Assembly: GCF_024502345.1 (NCBI RefSeq)
Contig: NZ_JALDNN010000001.1
Source: Escherichia coli
GTDB lineage: Bacteria; Pseudomonadota; Gammaproteobacteria; Enterobacterales; Enterobacteriaceae
Direction: 5' to 3' (one strand)
DNA: 64,000 nucleotides
Below, piece by piece: positions 11,162 through 33,839 of this stretch. The notes beneath the pieces are model-generated. The model was not told the DNA's origin and ran no database searches. It worked only from the letters and a program-made list of their open reading frames with translations. The position numbers and the translations under genes were made by a program. Within the stretch, counting starts at the first letter, position 1; each line of letters begins with the position of its first letter.

Positions 11162-12679
11162 ATGTGCGGTATTGTCGGTATCGCCGGTGTTATGCCGGTT
11201 AACCAGTCGATTTATGATGCCTTAACGGTGCTTCAGCATCGCGGTCAGGATGCCGCCGGCATCATCACCATAGATGCCAATAACTGCTTCCGATTGCGTA
11301 AAGCGAACGGGCTGGTGAGCGATGTATTTGAAGCTCGCCATATGCAGCGTTTGCAGGGCAATATGGGCATTGGTCATGTGCGTTACCCTACGGCTGGCAG
11401 CTCCAGCGCCTCTGAAGCGCAGCCGTTTTACGTTAACTCCCCGTATGGCATTACGCTTGCCCACAACGGCAATCTGACCAACGCTCACGAGTTGCGTAAA
11501 AAACTGTTTGAAGAAAAACGCCGCCACATCAACACCACTTCCGACTCGGAAATTCTGCTTAATATCTTCGCCAGCGAGCTGGACAATTTCCGCCACTACC
11601 CGCTGGAAGCCGACAATATTTTCGCTGCCATTGCTGCCACAAACCGCTTAATCCGCGGCGCGTATGCCTGTGTGGCGATGATTATCGGCCACGGTATGGT
11701 TGCTTTCCGCGATCCAAACGGGATTCGTCCGCTGGTACTGGGAAAACGTGATATTGACGAGAACCGTACAGAATATATGGTCGCTTCCGAAAGCGTAGCG
11801 CTCGATACGCTGGGCTTTGATTTTCTGCGTGACGTCGCGCCGGGCGAAGCGATTTACATCACTGAAGAAGGGCAGTTGTTTACCCGTCAATGTGCTGACA
11901 ATCCGGTCAGCAATCCGTGCCTGTTTGAGTATGTATACTTTGCCCGCCCGGACTCGTTTATCGACAAAATTTCCGTTTACAGCGCGCGTGTGAATATGGG
12001 CACGAAACTGGGTGAGAAAATTGCCCGCGAATGGGAAGATCTGGATATCGACGTGGTGATCCCGATCCCGGAAACCTCGTGTGATATCGCGCTGGAAATT
12101 GCTCGTATTCTGGGCAAGCCGTACCGCCAGGGCTTCGTTAAAAACCGCTATGTTGGCCGCACCTTCATCATGCCGGGCCAGCAGCTGCGTCGTAAGTCCG
12201 TGCGCCGTAAACTGAACGCCAACCGCGCCGAGTTCCGCGATAAAAACGTCCTGCTGGTCGACGACTCCATCGTCCGTGGCACCACTTCTGAGCAGATTAT
12301 CGAGATGGCACGCGAAGCCGGAGCGAAGAAAGTGTACCTCGCTTCTGCGGCACCGGAAATTCGCTTCCCGAACGTTTATGGTATTGATATGCCGAGCGCC
12401 ACGGAGCTTATCGCTCACGGTCGCGAAGTTGATGAAATTCGCCAGATCATCGGTGCTGACGGGTTGATTTTCCAGGATCTGAACGATCTGATCGACGCCG
12501 TTCGCGCTGAAAATCCGGATATCCAGCAGTTTGAATGCTCGGTGTTCAACGGCGTCTACGTCACCAAAGATGTTGATCAGGGCTACCTCGATTTCCTCGA
12601 TACGTTACGTAATGATGACGCCAAAGCAGTGCAACGTCAGAACGAAGTGGAAAATCTCGAAATGCATAACGAAGGATGA
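11162..12679 (+). CDS. purF: amidophosphoribosyltransferase
   Basis: 505-aa ORF; N-terminal nucleophile MCGIVGI (class II glutamine amidotransferase); PRTase domain. Confidence 0.95.
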
Positions 12680-12773
12680 TGCCTTCGCTGAGGGTGCCGG
12701 TCTGGCACCCTGACTTGCAACTCCCGCCGAAATCCTGCAAAGTCTGCCTGCAAGTCTGACAGGGCAACTATTT

Positions 12774-13343
12774 ATGAAACGACTCATTGTAGGCATCAGC
12801 GGTGCCAGCGGCGCGATTTATGGCGTGCGCTTATTACAGGTTCTGCGCGATGTCACAGATATCGAAACGCATCTGGTGATGAGCCAGGCAGCGCGCCAGA
12901 CCTTATCCCTCGAAACGGATTTTTCTCTGCGCGAAGTGCAGGCATTAGCCGATGTCACGCACGATGCGCGCGATATTGCCGCCAGCATCTCTTCCGGTTC
13001 TTTCCAGACGCTGGGGATGGTGATTTTACCCTGTTCAATCAAAACCCTTTCCGGCATTGTCCATAGCTATACTGATGGCTTACTGACCCGTGCGGCAGAT
13101 GTGGTGCTGAAAGAGCGTCGCCCGTTGGTGCTCTGCGTGCGTGAAACACCATTGCACTTAGGCCATCTGCGTTTAATGACTCAGGCGGCAGAAATCGGTG
13201 CGGTGATTATGCCTCCCGTTCCGGCGTTTTATCATCGCCCGCAATCCCTTGATGATGTGATAAATCAGACGGTTAATCGTGTTCTTGACCAGTTTGCAAT
13301 AACCCTTCCTGAAGATCTCTTTGCCCGCTGGCAGGGCGCATAA
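12774..13343 (+). CDS. ubiX: flavin prenyltransferase UbiX
   Basis: 189-aa ORF; flavoprotein motif GISGASGA. Confidence 0.9.
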   Translation: MKRLIVGISGASGAIYGVRLLQVLRDVTDIETHLVMSQAARQTLSLETDFSLREVQALADVTHDARDIAASISSGSFQTLGMVILPCSIKTLSGIVHSYTDGLLTRAADVVLKERRPLVLCVRETPLHLGHLRLMTQAAEIGAVIMPPVPAFYHRPQSLDDVINQTVNRVLDQFAITLPEDLFARWQGA

Positions 13344-13351
13344 CTCCGCTG

Positions 13352-13375
13352 TTGCCCTGTTTCAGGGCAATTTTG
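13352..13375 (+). terminator. rho-independent terminator after ubiX
   Basis: Stem ttgccct/agggcaa, loop gtttc, then tttt. Confidence 0.6.
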
Positions 13376-13524
13376 CAACCGCGATCAAATCCTCGACATT
13401 TTGTTTCTGCCATTCAATCGAAACGCTGCGATTCAACCGCTATACCTGCTATCTTCAACTTCAGGACAATAATGCAACGTCTTATTAACATATTTAACGT
13501 TGAATGTTACTGTTGTCGTCAAGA

Positions 13525-13540
13525 TGGCATAAGACCTGCA
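13525..13540 (+). promoter_or_regulatory. sigma54 (-24/-12) promoter candidate for argT
   Basis: TGGCAT-N5-CTGCA matches TGGCAC-N5-TTGCA with GG and GC correctly spaced; lies about 70 nt upstream of the argT ATG. Confidence 0.6.
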
Positions 13541-13608
13541 TGAAAGAGCCTGCAAACACACAACACAATACACAACATAAAAAAGCCATTTTCACTTGAG
13601 GGTTATGT

Positions 13609-14391
13609 ATGAAGAAGTCGATTCTCGCTCTGTCTTTGTTAGTCGGTCTCTCCGCAGCGGCTTCCAGCTATGCGGCGCTACCGGAGACGGTACGTATCGG
13701 AACCGATACCACCTATGCGCCGTTCTCGTCGAAAGATGCTAAAGGTGATTTTGTTGGCTTTGATATCGATCTCGGTAACGAGATGTGCAAACGGATGCAG
13801 GTGAAATGTACCTGGGTTGCCAGTGACTTTGACGCGCTGATCCCCTCACTGAAAGCGAAAAAAATCGACGCCATTATTTCGTCGCTTTCCATTACCGATA
13901 AACGTCAGCAGGAGATTGCCTTCTCCGACAAGCTGTACGCCGCAGATTCTCGTTTGATTGCTGCCAAAGGTTCACCGATTCAGCCAACGCTGGATTCACT
14001 GAAAGGTAAACATGTTGGTGTGCTGCAGGGATCAACCCAGGAAGCTTACGCTAACGAGACCTGGCGTAGCAAAGGCGTGGATGTGGTGGCCTATGCCAAC
14101 CAGGATTTGGTCTATTCCGATCTGGCTGCAGGACGTCTGGATGCTGCGTTACAAGATGAAGTTGCTGCCAGCGAAGGATTCCTCAAGCAACCTGCTGGTA
14201 AAGATTTCGCCTTTGCTGGCTCATCAGTAAAAGACAAAAAATACTTCGGTGATGGCACCGGTGTAGGGCTACGTAAAGATGATGCTGAACTGACGGCTGC
14301 CTTCAATAAGGCGCTTGGCGAGCTGCGTCAGGACGGCACCTACGACAAGATGGCGAAAAAGTATTTCGACTTTAATGTCTACGGTGACTGA
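13609..14391 (+). CDS. argT: lysine/arginine/ornithine periplasmic binding protein
   Basis: 260-aa ORF with a signal peptide; paralog of the downstream hisJ. Confidence 0.9.
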
Positions 14392-14611
14392 TACGTCGCT
14401 GGGAAGTTGTACCTGATGGAATGATCATCATGGTGCACGCCAGGTTTGTTGCACTATCGTGGTGCATTGAAATGCATACTTAAGCATTTTTAATGAAAAA
14501 TAATACGTCTAACGGGGCGGGATATTTTGCCTTGATGGTCAATTTTATGGCACGATAAGTGTAACAAACCTGTAAATATTCCCTATAAAAAGACTGTCAG
14601 TTGAGGACATT

Positions 14612-15394
14612 ATGAAAAAACTGGTGCTATCGCTCTCTCTGGTTCTGGCCTTCTCCAGCGCAACTGCGGCGTTTGCTGCGATTCCGCAAAACATCCGCAT
14701 CGGTACCGACCCGACCTATGCGCCATTTGAATCAAAAAATTCACAAGGCGAACTGGTTGGCTTCGATATCGATCTGGCAAAGGAATTATGCAAACGCATC
14801 AATACGCAATGTACGTTTGTCGAAAATCCGCTGGATGCGTTAATCCCGTCCTTAAAAGCGAAGAAGATTGACGCCATCATGTCATCGCTTTCCATTACGG
14901 AAAAACGTCAGCAAGAAATAGCCTTCACCGACAAACTGTACGCTGCCGATTCTCGTTTGGTGGTGGCGAAAAATTCTGACATTCAGCCGACAGTCGAGTC
15001 GCTGAAAGGCAAACGGGTAGGCGTATTGCAGGGCACCACCCAGGAGACGTTCGGTAATGAACATTGGGCACCAAAAGGCATTGAAATCGTCTCGTATCAG
15101 GGGCAGGACAACATTTATTCTGACCTGACTGCCGGACGTATTGATGCCGCGTTCCAGGATGAGGTCGCTGCCAGCGAAGGTTTCCTCAAACAACCTGTCG
15201 GTAAAGATTACAAATTCGGTGGCCCGTCTGTTAAAGATGAAAAACTGTTTGGCGTAGGGACCGGCATGGGCCTGCGTAAAGAAGATAACGAACTGCGCGA
15301 AGCACTGAACAAAGCCTTTGCCGAAATGCGCGCTGACGGTACTTACGAGAAATTAGCGAAAAAGTACTTCGATTTTGATGTTTATGGTGGCTAA
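14612..15394 (+). CDS. hisJ: histidine periplasmic binding protein
   Basis: 260-aa ORF with a signal peptide; family-3 solute-binding protein; directly upstream of hisQMP. Confidence 0.9.
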
Positions 15395-15418
15395 TCGCCA
15401 TCGGTGAAAGAAAGCCCG

Positions 15419-15442
15419 CTCCCTTCGGGTAACCGGAGGGAG
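15419..15442 (+). other. intercistronic stem-loop between hisJ and hisQ
   Basis: cucccuucgg/ccggagggag stem (two G-U pairs) capped by a GUAA (GNRA) tetraloop. Confidence 0.5.
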
Positions 15443-15483
15443 ACAAGAGGCGGTAATTCACCACACACGACAGGACAGGCAGC

Positions 15484-16170
15484 ATGTTGTATGGGTTTTC
15501 AGGTGTTATTTTACAGGGTGCGCTCGTCACGCTGGAGCTGGCTATCAGCTCTGTAGTGCTCGCTGTAATCATCGGTTTAATTGGCGCTGGCGGTAAGCTC
15601 TCGCAAAATCGGCTTTCGGGGCTGATTTTCGAAGGGTACACCACGCTGATTCGTGGCGTGCCGGACTTAGTGTTGATGCTGCTGATTTTCTACGGTTTGC
15701 AGATTGCGCTAAACACGGTGACGGAGGCGATGGGCGTCGGGCAGATTGATATCGATCCGATGGTCGCTGGTATTATCACTCTCGGTTTTATCTACGGTGC
15801 TTATTTTACCGAAACGTTCCGTGGTGCTTTTATGGCAGTGCCGAAAGGACATATAGAGGCGGCGACGGCGTTCGGTTTTACTCGTGGGCAAGTGTTTCGG
15901 CGGATCATGTTTCCGGCGATGATGCGTTACGCCCTGCCAGGCATTGGCAACAACTGGCAGGTGATCCTCAAATCTACCGCACTGGTTTCGTTACTCGGCC
16001 TGGAAGATGTGGTCAAAGCCACCCAACTGGCAGGCAAAAGTACCTGGGAACCGTTCTATTTCGCCATCGTCTGTGGCGTGATTTACCTGGTTTTCACCAC
16101 TGTTTCCAATGGTGTGCTGCTGTTCCTTGAGCGCCGCTACTCCGTGGGTGTGAAGAGGGCTGACCTGTGA
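15484..16170 (+). CDS. hisQ: histidine/LAO ABC transporter permease
   Basis: 228-aa membrane ORF; ABC permease EAA-type motif EAATAFGFTRGQ. Confidence 0.9.
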   Translation: MLYGFSGVILQGALVTLELAISSVVLAVIIGLIGAGGKLSQNRLSGLIFEGYTTLIRGVPDLVLMLLIFYGLQIALNTVTEAMGVGQIDIDPMVAGIITLGFIYGAYFTETFRGAFMAVPKGHIEAATAFGFTRGQVFRRIMFPAMMRYALPGIGNNWQVILKSTALVSLLGLEDVVKATQLAGKSTWEPFYFAIVCGVIYLVFTTVSNGVLLFLERRYSVGVKRADL

Positions 16171-16883
16171 TCGAAATCTTACATGAATACTGGAAACCGC
16201 TGCTGTGGACCGACGGTTATCGCTTTACTGGTGTGGCGATCACTCTGTGGCTGCTTATTTTGTCGGTAGTGATAGGCGGAGTCCTGGCGCTGTTTCTGGC
16301 GATTGGTCGTGTCTCCAGTAATAAATACATCCAGTTTCCAATCTGGTTATTTACCTATATTTTTCGCGGTACGCCGCTGTATGTTCAGTTGCTGGTGTTC
16401 TATTCCGGCATGTACACGCTTGAGATTGTTAAGGGAACCGAATTCCTTAACGCTTTCTTCCGCAGTGGCCTGAACTGTACCGTGCTGGCGCTGACGCTTA
16501 ACACCTGCGCTTACACTACCGAGATTTTTGCTGGGGCAATCCGTTCGGTTCCGCATGGGGAAATTGAAGCCGCCAGAGCCTATGGCTTCTCGACTTTTAA
16601 AATGTATCGTTGCATTATTTTGCCTTCTGCGCTGCGTATTGCGTTACCGGCATACAGCAACGAAGTGATCCTGATGCTGCACTCTACTGCGCTGGCGTTT
16701 ACGGCCACTGTGCCGGATCTGCTGAAAATAGCCCGCGATATTAACGCCGCCACGTATCAACCTTTTACCGCCTTCGGCATTGCCGCGGTGCTCTATTTAA
16801 TCATCTCTTATGTCCTGATCAGCCTCTTTCGCAGAGCGGAAAAACGCTGGTTGCAGCATGTGAAACCTTCTTCAACGCACTGA
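16167..16883 (+). CDS. hisM: histidine/LAO ABC transporter permease
   Basis: 238-aa membrane [15 protein letters not shown] motif; 4-nt overlap with hisQ. Confidence 0.9.
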
Positions 16884-16890
16884 GAATACG

Positions 16891-17664
16891 ATGTCCGAGA
16901 ATAAATTAAACGTTATCGATTTGCACAAACGCTACGGCGAACACGAAGTGCTGAAAGGGGTCTCACTACAAGCGAATGCCGGAGATGTAATAAGCATCAT
17001 CGGATCGTCGGGCTCGGGAAAAAGTACCTTTCTGCGCTGCATTAACTTCCTCGAAAAACCGAGCGAAGGATCGATCGTGGTCAATGGCCAGACGATCAAT
17101 CTGGTGCGCGACAAAGACGGTCAACTCAAAGTCGCCGATAAAAATCAACTGCGCTTACTGCGCACACGCCTGACGATGGTATTCCAGCACTTCAATCTCT
17201 GGAGCCATATGACGGTGCTGGAAAACGTCATGGAAGCGCCGATTCAGGTGTTGGGCCTGAGCAAGCAGGAAGCGCGCGAGCGGGCGGTGAAGTATCTGGC
17301 AAAAGTCGGGATAGACGAACGTGCACAGGGGAAATATCCGGTGCATCTTTCCGGCGGTCAGCAACAGCGTGTTTCTATCGCGCGGGCGCTGGCGATGGAA
17401 CCGGAAGTTTTACTGTTTGATGAACCTACCTCGGCGCTCGATCCTGAACTGGTAGGCGAAGTGCTGCGCATTATGCAGCAGCTGGCGGAAGAGGGAAAAA
17501 CCATGGTGGTAGTGACTCACGAAATGGGCTTTGCTCGTCATGTTTCTACTCACGTCATTTTCCTCCATCAGGGGAAAATAGAGGAAGAAGGCGCGCCGGA
17601 GCAGTTATTTGGCAACCCGCAAAGCCCTCGTCTGCAACAGTTCCTTAAAGGTTCGCTGAAATAA
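16891..17664 (+). CDS. hisP: histidine/LAO ABC transporter ATP-binding protein
   Basis: 257-aa ORF; Walker [13 protein letters not shown] signature LSGGQQQR, Walker [12 protein letters not shown]. Confidence 0.95.
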
Positions 17665-17670
17665 TTGCCT

Positions 17671-17700
17671 CTCCGGTGGCTAACGCCGCCGGAGTATTTT
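17671..17700 (+). terminator. rho-independent terminator after hisP
   Basis: Stem ctccggtggc/gccgccggag followed by tatttt. Confidence 0.6.
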
Positions 17701-17860
17701 CAAGGGGAATTTGCGAGTCAGCTTCCGCTGAAATGTAAAAGTTGCAGTCCGCTAAAAATAGTTCTGAATTCGCTGTCCAAAGATAAAAACTGCCTGCTGC
17801 ATTGGGTGTTAATCGTGGTTATTGTCGCGTCATCTTAAATTTGAGGGGTGACGGAACGCC

Positions 17861-18751
17861 ATGACAATATCGACAACTTCCACGCCGCATGATGCGGTAT
17901 TTAAATCTTTTTTACGCCATCCAGACACCGCGCGGGATTTTATTGATATTCATCTTCCCGCGCCGCTGCGCAAACTGTGTGATTTAACGACGCTTAAACT
18001 GGAACCAAACAGTTTTATTGATGACGACCTGCGGCAATATTATTCCGACCTCTTGTGGTCTGTGAAAACGCAGGAGGGAGTGGGTTATATTTATGTAGTG
18101 ATAGAGCACCAAAGTAAGCCGGAAGAATTAATGGCTTTTCGCATGATGCGTTATTCCATTGCGGCAATGCAAAACCATCTTGATGCGGGCTATAAAGAGC
18201 TTCCATTGGTGATCCCGATGCTGTTTTATCATGGTTGCAGAAGTCCTTATCCTTATTCACTCTGCTGGCTTGATGAATTTGCCGAGCCTGCTATAGCCCG
18301 CAAAATATATTCATCAGCGTTTCCGTTGGTGGATATTACCGTGGTGCCGGATGACGAGATTATGCAACACCGCAAAATGGCGCTGTTGGAGTTAATTCAG
18401 AAACATATTCGTCAGCGCGATCTGTTGGGATTAGTCGACCAAATTGTTTCGCTGCTAGTTACAGGGAACACTAATGACAGACAGCTAAAAGCCCTGTTTA
18501 ATTACGTATTACAAACAGGGGATGCCCAGCGTTTTCGTGCATTTATTGGTGAGATAGCGGAACGCGCACCACAAGAAAAGGAGAAACTGATGACCATTGC
18601 TGACAGATTACGTGAAGAAGGCGCAATGCAGGGCAAACACGAAGAAGCCCTGCGTATTGCTCAGGAGATGCTGGATAGAGGTTTAGACAGAGAGTTAGTT
18701 ATGATGGTGACCCGACTTTCACCAGACGATCTTATCGCGCAAAGCCACTAA
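17861..18751 (+). CDS. rpnB: recombination-promoting nuclease RpnB (YhgA-like, PD-(D/E)XK family)
   Basis: 296-aa ORF; N-terminal FKSFL/HDAVFK YhgA-like signature; sits between hisP and yfcH as K-12 yfcI does. Confidence 0.8.
18590..18751 (+). CDS. candidate nested small protein: in-frame internal start in the rpnB 3' end (53 aa, identical to the RpnB C-terminal tail)
   Basis: Internal ATG at 18590 preceded by AAGGAG (18578-18583) with a 6-nt spacer; no expression evidence is available from sequence. Confidence 0.35.
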
Positions 18752-32621: not shown

Positions 32622-33839
32622 TTACAGCTGATGATAACCAGAAAGGAAACGCGCGAACTTGCTCAAAGACAGCTCGATATCATCGACACGCGGTAGCGTG
32701 ACAATGCGGAAGTGATCCGGCCACGGCCAGTTGAATGCCGTCCCTTGCACCAACAGAACTTTTTCCTGCAACAGGAAATCCAGCACCATTTTCTGATCGT
32801 CGTGAATGTTAAAGCGTTTGGCGTCGATTTTCGGGAACATATACAGCGCACCACGAGGTTTCACGCAGGAAACGCCCGGAATATCGTTGATCAATTCCCA
32901 CGCGCGGTTACGCTGCTCATAAAGACGACCGCCAGGGGTAATAAATTCACTGATGCTCTGATAACCACCCAGCGCGGTCTGAATGGCGTGTTGCGCAGGA
33001 ACGTTAGCACACAGGCGCATTGAAGCCAGCATTTCCAGACCTTCGATGTAGCCTTTGGCGTGTTTTTTCGGCCCGTTCAACACCATCCACCCCTGACGGA
33101 AGCCTGCAACGCGGTACGTTTTCGACAGTCCGTTAAAGGTAATGGTCAGCAGGTCAGGTGCCAGCGGCGCAATTGAGTGATGCTCAGCGTCGTCGTAGAG
33201 AATTTTGTCATAAATTTCATCGGCGAAGATAATGAGATTATGCTGACGTGCAATCTCCACAATCTCCATTAAAAGCTCTTTGGAATATACCGCGCCGGTT
33301 GGGTTATTTGGGTTGATAATAACAATCCCACGCGTACGAGGCGTAATTTTAGCGCGAATATCATCGAGGTCCGGGAACCAGTCAGAGGATTCATCGCAAA
33401 GATAATGCACCGCTTTACCGCTGGAAAGCGAAACCGCCGCGGTCCAGAGTGGGTAATCTGGTGCAGGAACCAACATTTCGTCCCCGCTGTTCAGCAATGC
33501 CTGCATTGCCTGAACGATAAGCTCCGATACACCATTGCCGATGTAAATATCTTCCACGGTAACATCACGCATGCCACGAGCCTGGTAGTGCTGCATGATG
33601 GCTTTACGCGCGGAGTAAAGACCTTTGGAATCGCAATACCCTTGAGCGGTAGGCAGGTTGCGTATCACGTCAACGAGGATTTCATCTGGCGCGTCAAAAC
33701 CGAACGGGGCTGGGTTGCCGATGTTCAGTTTCAGTACCTTGTTACCTTCTTCTTCCAGGCGTTTTGCTTCTTTCAGCACCGGACCACGGATGTCATAACA
33801 GACATTCTCTAATTTGCTGGATTTTTCAATGGGGGACAT
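32622..33839 (-). CDS. alaA: glutamate-pyruvate aminotransferase (class I PLP aminotransferase)
   Basis: 405-aa ORF; PLP-lysine region FNGLSKTYRVAGFRQGW. Confidence 0.9.
   Translation of the reverse strand: MSPIEKSSKLENVCYDIRGPVLKEAKRLEEEGNKVLKLNIGNPAPFGFDAPDEILVDVIRNLPTAQGYCDSKGLYSARKAIMQHYQARGMRDVTVEDIYIGNGVSELIVQAMQALLNSGDEMLVPAPDYPLWTAAVSLSSGKAVHYLCDESSDWFPDLDDIRAKITPRTRGIVIINPNNPTGAVYSKELLMEIVEIARQHNLIIFADEIYDKILYDDAEHHSIAPLAPDLLTITFNGLSKTYRVAGFRQGWMVLNGPKKHAKGYIEGLEMLASMRLCANVPAQHAIQTALGGYQSISEFITPGGRLYEQRNRAWELINDIPGVSCVKPRGALYMFPKIDAKRFNIHDDQKMVLDFLLQEKVLLVQGTAFNWPWPDHFRIVTLPRVDDIELSLSKFARFLSGYHQL

Follow-up and report, generated by a model that had tools for sequence, protein, structure and literature searches.

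The conserved sigma-54 promoter of argT in Escherichia coli and its candidate NtrC enhancers

Introduction

Which promoter directs the transcription of argT, how does nitrogen control reach it, and is the neighbouring hisJ read from a promoter of the same kind? The questions arise from a 64,000-nt stretch of Escherichia coli DNA, called here the window, in which an initial annotation made from the letters alone had placed a sigma-54, NtrC-dependent promoter in front of argT and had regarded hisJ as probably driven by sigma-70. The 17-mer at 13524-13540 is, with high confidence, the sigma-54 (RpoN) promoter of argT. This promoter is real and already known, and about argT itself nothing new is added here. 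The case illustrates that a genuine conserved sigma-54 promoter can be recovered from the sequence alone, without tools.

Genomic context of argT

The features discussed below are collected in Table 1. The 1.4 kb surrounding the argT promoter found a match in 5425 of 5426 complete E. coli genomes, where the annotation reads ubiX, argT and hisJ. Between 13340 and 13615 the window is identical to K-12 MG1655, so that the results of the K-12 literature apply base for base; published coordinates were converted by taking the window position as 13609 + (2425813 - U00096.2 coordinate).

Table 1. Positions of the features of the ubiX-argT-hisJ region in the window
Feature	Position	Strand	Basis or remark
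cvpA-purF-ubiX-argT-hisJQMP		+ throughout	window is E. coli chromosome
ubiX intrinsic terminator hairpin, GTTGCCCTG-TTT-CAGGGCAAT	13351-13375 including T run (hairpin 13351-13371)	+	fold energy
Conserved ubiX-argT spacer blocks: GCGATCAAATCC; TGCTATCTT; TGCAAC...TTAACA	13381-13392; 13447-13455; 13473-13490		alignment
Putative sigma-70 promoter: -35 TTAACA; TG; -10 TACTGT	13485-13490; 13505-13506; 13508-13513; start about 13519	+	read by eye
sigma-54 -24/-12 promoter element of argT, ATGGCATAAGACCTGCA	13524-13540	+	sequence, matrix, conservation, ChIP-seq site OS22
Predicted sigma-54 transcription start	13551 +/- 2 nt	+	12 nt past the -12 C; 58-nt 5' UTR
C/A-rich start of the argT 5' UTR, complementary to GcvB R1	13551-13577	+	duplex energy
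argT Shine-Dalgarno sequence TGAGGG	13597-13602	+	directly ahead of ATG 13609
argT coding sequence	13609-14391	+	ATG at 13609
NtrC enhancer of the argT-hisJ spacer: TGCACTATCGTGGTGCA; half-site ending TGGTGCA	14450-14466; 14421-14437		NtrC consensus
sigma-70 promoter of hisJ, TTGAAA-16-TTTAAT	14467-14472; 14489-14494	+	hexamers from Shimada 2014
sigma-54-like element before hisJ, ATGGCACGATAAGTGTA	14547-14563	+	-24 intact, GT for GC at -12; 12.8 bits

The spacer between ubiX and argT measures 265 nt, and hisJ begins with an ATG at 14612. At the ubiX end of the spacer the terminator hairpin folds with -15.1 kcal/mol (z = -2.8) and is also kept in an alignment of 28 species; it shields argT from transcription arriving from upstream. 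On the 3' side of argT, the fold of 14386-14450 was matched in stability by 12 of 200 shuffles and thus showed no clear excess, which agrees with the argT-hisJQMP transcription unit of the literature. With no strong terminator behind the E. coli argT, read-through into hisJQMP is probable. A scan of 12500-18000 against Rfam (E <= 1) returned no RNA family.

The -24/-12 element in front of argT

The sequence TGGCATAAGACCTGCA at 13525-13540 is composed of TGGCAT (13525-13530), five further bases and CTGCA (13536-13540), with the sigma-54 spacing that had been read from it. The GG (13526-13527) and the GC (13538-13539) are offset by 12 nt, with 10 bp between them, as in the consensus TGGCAC-N5-TTGCW, and the element points towards the gene. 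Its GC lies 70 nt ahead of the argT ATG, in line with the distance of about 70 nt first given, and the element as a whole stands 68 nt ahead of that ATG.

How often such a match occurs by chance was estimated in several ways. The IUPAC pattern TGGCAY-N5-YTGCW was found twice in the window where 0.56 occurrences were expected, and 12 of 100 shuffled sequences reached two; a looser sigma-54 pattern was found three times against 1.85 expected. With a matrix built from the 41 other intergenic-sense ChIP-seq motifs in Bonocora 2015, argT being left out, the 17-mer 13524-13540 obtained the top score among the approximately 128,000 positions of both strands. This score of 15.0 bits lies under the median of the training sites (16.1 bits, range 8.2-21.7), and 62% of simulated 64-kb sequences reached it, with a mean of 1.0 site per run. 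Taken by itself, the argT motif match is within what chance yields in 64 kb. Since the bare match is not significant, reliance has to be placed on position, conservation and published binding, and the decisive support for the element is its conservation together with the binding data.

One may ask whether the element is a functionless chance match, with argT driven solely by sigma-70-type promoters. Such a reading would be compatible with the chance frequency of equally strong pattern and matrix scores, which is about one per 64 kb. However, the expectation for the sense strand of the 265-nt ubiX-argT spacer is only about 0.002 sites of this strength, the two doublets do not vary in any of the 80 species, and sigma-54 was found on exactly this sequence in vivo and in vitro in three independent studies. 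Contradicted by both ChIP-seq and conservation, a chance origin is vanishingly improbable.

Conservation of the element

One scan of species-representative genomes covered 80 species of Enterobacteriaceae, in all of which argT and hisJ stand in tandem; Escherichia, Salmonella, Citrobacter, Enterobacter, Klebsiella, Raoultella, Kosakonia, Pluralibacter and Franconibacter are among the genera. The pattern TGGCA[CT]-N5-NTGC[AT] was present 50-89 nt ahead of the argT ATG in every one of them. It occurs there in 16 sequence variants that vary in the spacer and the flanks while GG and GC stay constant, as expected of purifying selection on the core doublets at the orthologous position. In the same way, TGGCA (13525-13529) and TGC (13537-13539) are invariant in the 28-species alignment, in a region whose mean identity is 60%.

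Of 5426 complete E. coli genomes, 5424 have the 60-nt region that surrounds the element, and 1965 of these 5424 carry some difference there. Strain B27 (NZ_AP027424.1; locus L083, 2168-2571) has neither ubiX nor any of the -24/-12 element: unrelated sequence meets the argT leader at -12, the junction corresponding to 13538/13539 of the window, so that the strain is a natural promoter-deletion variant.

Published binding of sigma-54 and NtrC

In K-12, sigma-54 ChIP-seq identified site OS22 with the motif ATGGCATAAGACCTGCA and argT as the downstream gene (Bonocora 2015). Its peak at 2425886 rose 12-fold over threshold, and the motif centre at 2425890 falls on position 13532 of the window; the cells had been grown in nitrogen-replete M9 medium, and the EcoCyc status of the promoter was then "predicted", not "confirmed". 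In gSELEX with the RpoN holoenzyme, the ubiX-argT spacer gave a peak of 61% without NtrC and 55% with NtrC (Shimada 2021). In Salmonella, ChIP-chip located sigma-54 on the identical sequence TGGCATAAGACCTGCATG; argT is one of four operons there for which regulation by sigma-54 has been demonstrated experimentally, its activator being NtrC, and a wild-type to delta-rpoN ratio of 3.5 was obtained with a promiscuous activator. By sequence identity, the occupancy by the holoenzyme holds for the element of the window.

Binding of the activator was also observed. In nitrogen-starved cells, NtrC ChIP-seq gave at argT a peak added by eye (peak 13, 13481-13561 of the window, 5.4-fold) and at hisJ a peak of 23.7-fold (peak 12, 2424941-2425021, that is 14401-14481 of the window), and NtrC-dependent expression at both was credited to Zimmer 2000 (Brown 2014). 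An argTp-lacZ fusion increased 2.4-fold in a glnK mutant, and the sigma-54/NtrC mechanism is stated explicitly for argT by Charlier and co-workers. According to this literature, then, NtrC is bound near argT in vivo and argT expression depends on it. In vitro, both the argT and the hisJ spacers are absent from the NtrC gSELEX list; this absence is read as limited sensitivity because the in vivo signal at hisJ is 23.7-fold. Taken together, ChIP-seq site OS22, gSELEX, NtrC ChIP-seq and the ChIP-chip and genetics of Salmonella bear out the sigma-54, NtrC-dependent promoter that had been proposed for argT.

Promoter or local repressor

A different role has been suggested by the finding that argT RNA is higher without sigma-54 under non-inducing conditions (550 vs 127 RPKM), which counts against a productive promoter. 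The element could mainly be a parking site, at which a silent sigma-54 holoenzyme blocks a sigma-70 promoter about 30 nt upstream (about 13519) and thus acts as a repressor. Relative to a sigma-70-like start, the motif was assigned to +6 to +22, so that +1 falls on 13519; argT expression with rpoN was 23% of that with the vector, and in vitro sigma-54 cut abortive RNA synthesis by sigma-70 by 10-60% at four promoters including argT (Schaefer 2015). A general class of "repressive" RpoN promoters has moreover been proposed (Shimada 2021), and a plausible sigma-70 promoter, TTAACA-17-(TG)TACTGT, is readable at 13485-13513.

Several observations are nevertheless difficult to reconcile with this role. 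In the RNA-seq data (RPKM with wild-type sigma-54, delta-RI and no sigma-54), argT went through 127, 598 and 550, and hisJ, which has no reported sigma-54 peak, shifted as much (109, 651 and 703; Schaefer 2015). Unrelated genes such as accC, aceA, adhE and alaA also shift, so the effect may be physiological instead of local. The -10 of the putative sigma-70 promoter is not conserved beyond Escherichia, whereas the -24/-12 element is invariant in 80 species, and for argT a positive dependence on sigma-54 and NtrC is known from Salmonella, and induction by NtrC from E. coli. In view of the equal shifts of hisJ and many unrelated genes in this data set, local repression was rejected as the main role of sigma-54 here. 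As the principal function of the element, a parking site is very unlikely; a repressor role at argT is possible as an added role, not as the sole explanation.

A sigma-70 consensus scan of 13300-14700 yielded nothing at 9 of 12 positions, a threshold that the published and putative sigma-70 promoters either fall under or miss through the scan's rule of an A at position 2. The lack of a good sigma-70 consensus in the ubiX-argT spacer was counted for the reading as a sigma-54 promoter. Of note, a common E. coli variant (13513 T to C, for example in TL20) changes the last base of the putative -10 and leaves the sigma-54 element intact.

Proposed mechanism and the argT leader

With the element taken as a productive sigma-54 promoter, the following sequence of events can be proposed. 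As ChIP-seq has shown, RNA polymerase carrying sigma-54 sits on the -24 GG and the -12 GC in nitrogen-replete cells too, in a closed complex. DNA opening needs NtrC phosphorylated under nitrogen limitation, through a looping contact and ATP hydrolysis, a step that is established for the class and is assigned to argT by the literature. Transcription would then start near 13551 and give an argT mRNA with a 58-nt leader. This start is that of the rule "motif centre + 19" of Bonocora 2015, whose table for OS22 predicts a start 58 nt ahead of argT.

The first 27 nt of the leader, rich in C and A, would be the part that the small RNA GcvB targets. The duplex of the leader with nt 63-92 of GcvB, a small RNA identified by Rfam RF00022, reached -36.8 kcal/mol, compared with -16.5 +/- 3.8 kcal/mol for 1000 random 58-mers of the window, and the pairing of these 27 nt with the R1 region is almost continuous. 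argT is a published target of GcvB R1.

Which enhancer serves the argT promoter

While the promoter itself is plain, the position of the NtrC sites that act on it is less so. The best match to the NtrC consensus upstream of argT (13300-13608) has 5 of 13 mismatches and coincides with the ubiX terminator hairpin; no canonical TGCACC-N4-TGGTGCA stands about 100-200 bp upstream of the promoter. In the ubiX-argT spacer, three blocks do not vary among the 28 aligned species (Table 1), but consensus scans found in them no NtrC match with fewer than 5 mismatches and no IHF match with fewer than 2. One of them, TGCTATCTT, resembles an extended -10 element. The best NtrC match of the whole window is TGCACTATCGTGGTGCA (14450-14466), with 1 of 13 mismatches, at +907 from the argT start. 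Together with its half-site it forms an enhancer (14421-14466) that lies within the strong NtrC ChIP-seq peak at 14401-14481 and is kept across species.

In Enterobacter, Klebsiella, Pluralibacter and others, NtrC palindromes with 1-2 mismatches are found 255-293 nt ahead of the argT ATG (loci L026, L031, L034, L035, L039, L043, L050-L054 and others). They overlap the end or the stop codon of ubiX, as in Enterobacter cloacae with TGCACCTGCAGGGTGCA. The E. coli counterpart is decayed, with about 6 mismatches by hand count. Salmonella, like E. coli, has no NtrC consensus site upstream of argT.

The ubiX-argT spacer of E. coli has no canonical NtrC site and is absent from the NtrC gSELEX list, which could suggest that the sigma-54 promoter of argT is activated by another enhancer-binding protein. 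On the contrary, NtrC ChIP signal was recorded on the argT promoter and, at a distance of 0.9 kb, as a strong peak, argT expression responds to NtrC and GlnK, the palindromes of the relatives are those of NtrC, and the literature assigns NtrC as the activator; a different activator is extremely unlikely.

For NtrC as the activator, the candidates for its input to argTp are weak non-consensus sites in the spacer, a high NtrC concentration, or the hisJ-proximal enhancer about 0.9 kb downstream. A more specific scenario, speculative and rather unlikely, is that argTp of Escherichia (and Salmonella) lost the proximal palindrome and is served by the enhancer 0.9 kb downstream. This enhancer would belong also, or have belonged originally, to a hisJ sigma-54 promoter with a decayed -12, and looping would account for the weak NtrC ChIP signal at argT as a "shadow". 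The response of an ectopic argTp-lacZ fusion, on a fragment of unstated bounds, argues against an exclusive downstream enhancer. Among species with a decayed hisJ -12, the argT-hisJ spacer contained a good NtrC site in 24 of 24 without an argT-proximal site and in 10 of 15 with one, an exploratory comparison uncorrected for shared ancestry in which about three independent losses are involved. The enhancer question at E. coli argTp, like the hisJ motif treated below, may be of modest interest to researchers on bacterial enhancers.

The sigma-54-like motif in front of hisJ

Before hisJ, the initial annotation had pointed to an equivalent sequence, tggcacgataagtgtaa at 14548-14564, 48 nt ahead of the ATG at 14612, with the GG but without the -12 GC; E. 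coli indeed has GT at -12. The motif ATGGCACGATAAGTGTA is the fifth best matrix score of the window. Across the 80 species, its -24 TGGCAC is invariant (80 of 80), while TGC at -12 is kept in 27 of 80: 29 different -12 pentamers were counted, GTGTA being that of every Escherichia species. In K-12, the sigma-54 ChIP-seq tables of high and of low stringency list no hisJ site. Neither a -12 GC nor sigma-54 occupancy thus places the E. coli motif in the sigma-54 class.

The start implied by the motif (14574) puts the NtrC sites of the spacer at about -116 (14450-14466, the strongest of the window) and -145. Most genera have a third NtrC site before hisJ, which is gone from Escherichia in a gap of about 31 bp. 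One of the NtrC sites is abutted by the hisJ sigma-70 promoter. The conserved block TGCATACTTAAGCA (14474-14494), which lies over this promoter, is ARG box-like and fits the published ArgR control.

As for the view that hisJ is probably sigma-70-driven, its conclusion gains from the documented sigma-70 promoter and from the lack of a sigma-54 ChIP peak, and the literature on growing cells agrees with it, Charlier and co-workers describing hisJQMP under the control of sigma-70 and ArgR. The argument from the absent GC, by contrast, is weak, because a -12 GC is also missing from confirmed sigma-54 promoters, among them pspA and pspG (TTGTA) and hydN (GTGAA) (Bonocora 2015). The conserved -24 together with the enhancer suggests a weak or conditional, or else a residual, role of sigma-54 at hisJ.

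Other candidate sites in the window

In the interior of alaA (33148-33164, minus strand), a sense-strand sigma-54-like motif, CTGGCACCTGACCTGCT, was found with 12.5 bits; no listed ChIP-seq peak covers it. In the 42 C data of Schaefer, alaA RNA is about 6-fold higher without sigma-54, a shift that may be indirect. Weak RpoN gSELEX peaks (31%) have been described in the dedD-cvpA (about 10350) and ackA-yfbV (about 27990) spacers (Shimada 2021), and none of the 15 best matrix scores of the window lies near either position.

Comparison with known systems

The series of -12 variants at hisJ, behind an invariant -24 and a conserved enhancer, offers a test bed for how far sigma-54 needs its -12 element. 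At the known sigma-54 promoters pspA, pspG and hydN, a strong TGGCAC or TGGCAT at -24 is combined with TTGTA or GTGAA at -12, yet they are bound and functional. The hisJ motif with its GTGTA differs from them in that no K-12 sigma-54 ChIP-seq peak has been reported for it.

A known system comparable to argTp is glnAp2, an NtrC-activated sigma-54 promoter with tandem upstream enhancer sites near -140 and -108. E. coli argTp shares with it the promoter class and the activator but, unlike it, has no tandem high-affinity sites in its upstream spacer. It is hisJ, with NtrC sites at -145 and -116 that abut a sigma-70 promoter, that recalls the glnAp1/glnAp2 layout.

As with overlapping sigma-70/sigma-54 promoters of the glmY/glmZ type, a reported sigma-70-type start adjoins the sigma-54 promoter of argT and the two holoenzymes may compete. 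The overlap at argT is not full, the sigma-54 motif lying downstream of the sigma-70 start (+6 to +22), and what has been observed in vivo does not point specifically to local repression. Among the closest counterparts is argT of Salmonella Typhimurium (STM2355), in which the surrounding spacer differs at many positions; the core element shows no material difference, since the sigma-54-bound 18-mer TGGCATAAGACCTGCATG is identical and its place in front of the orthologue is unchanged.
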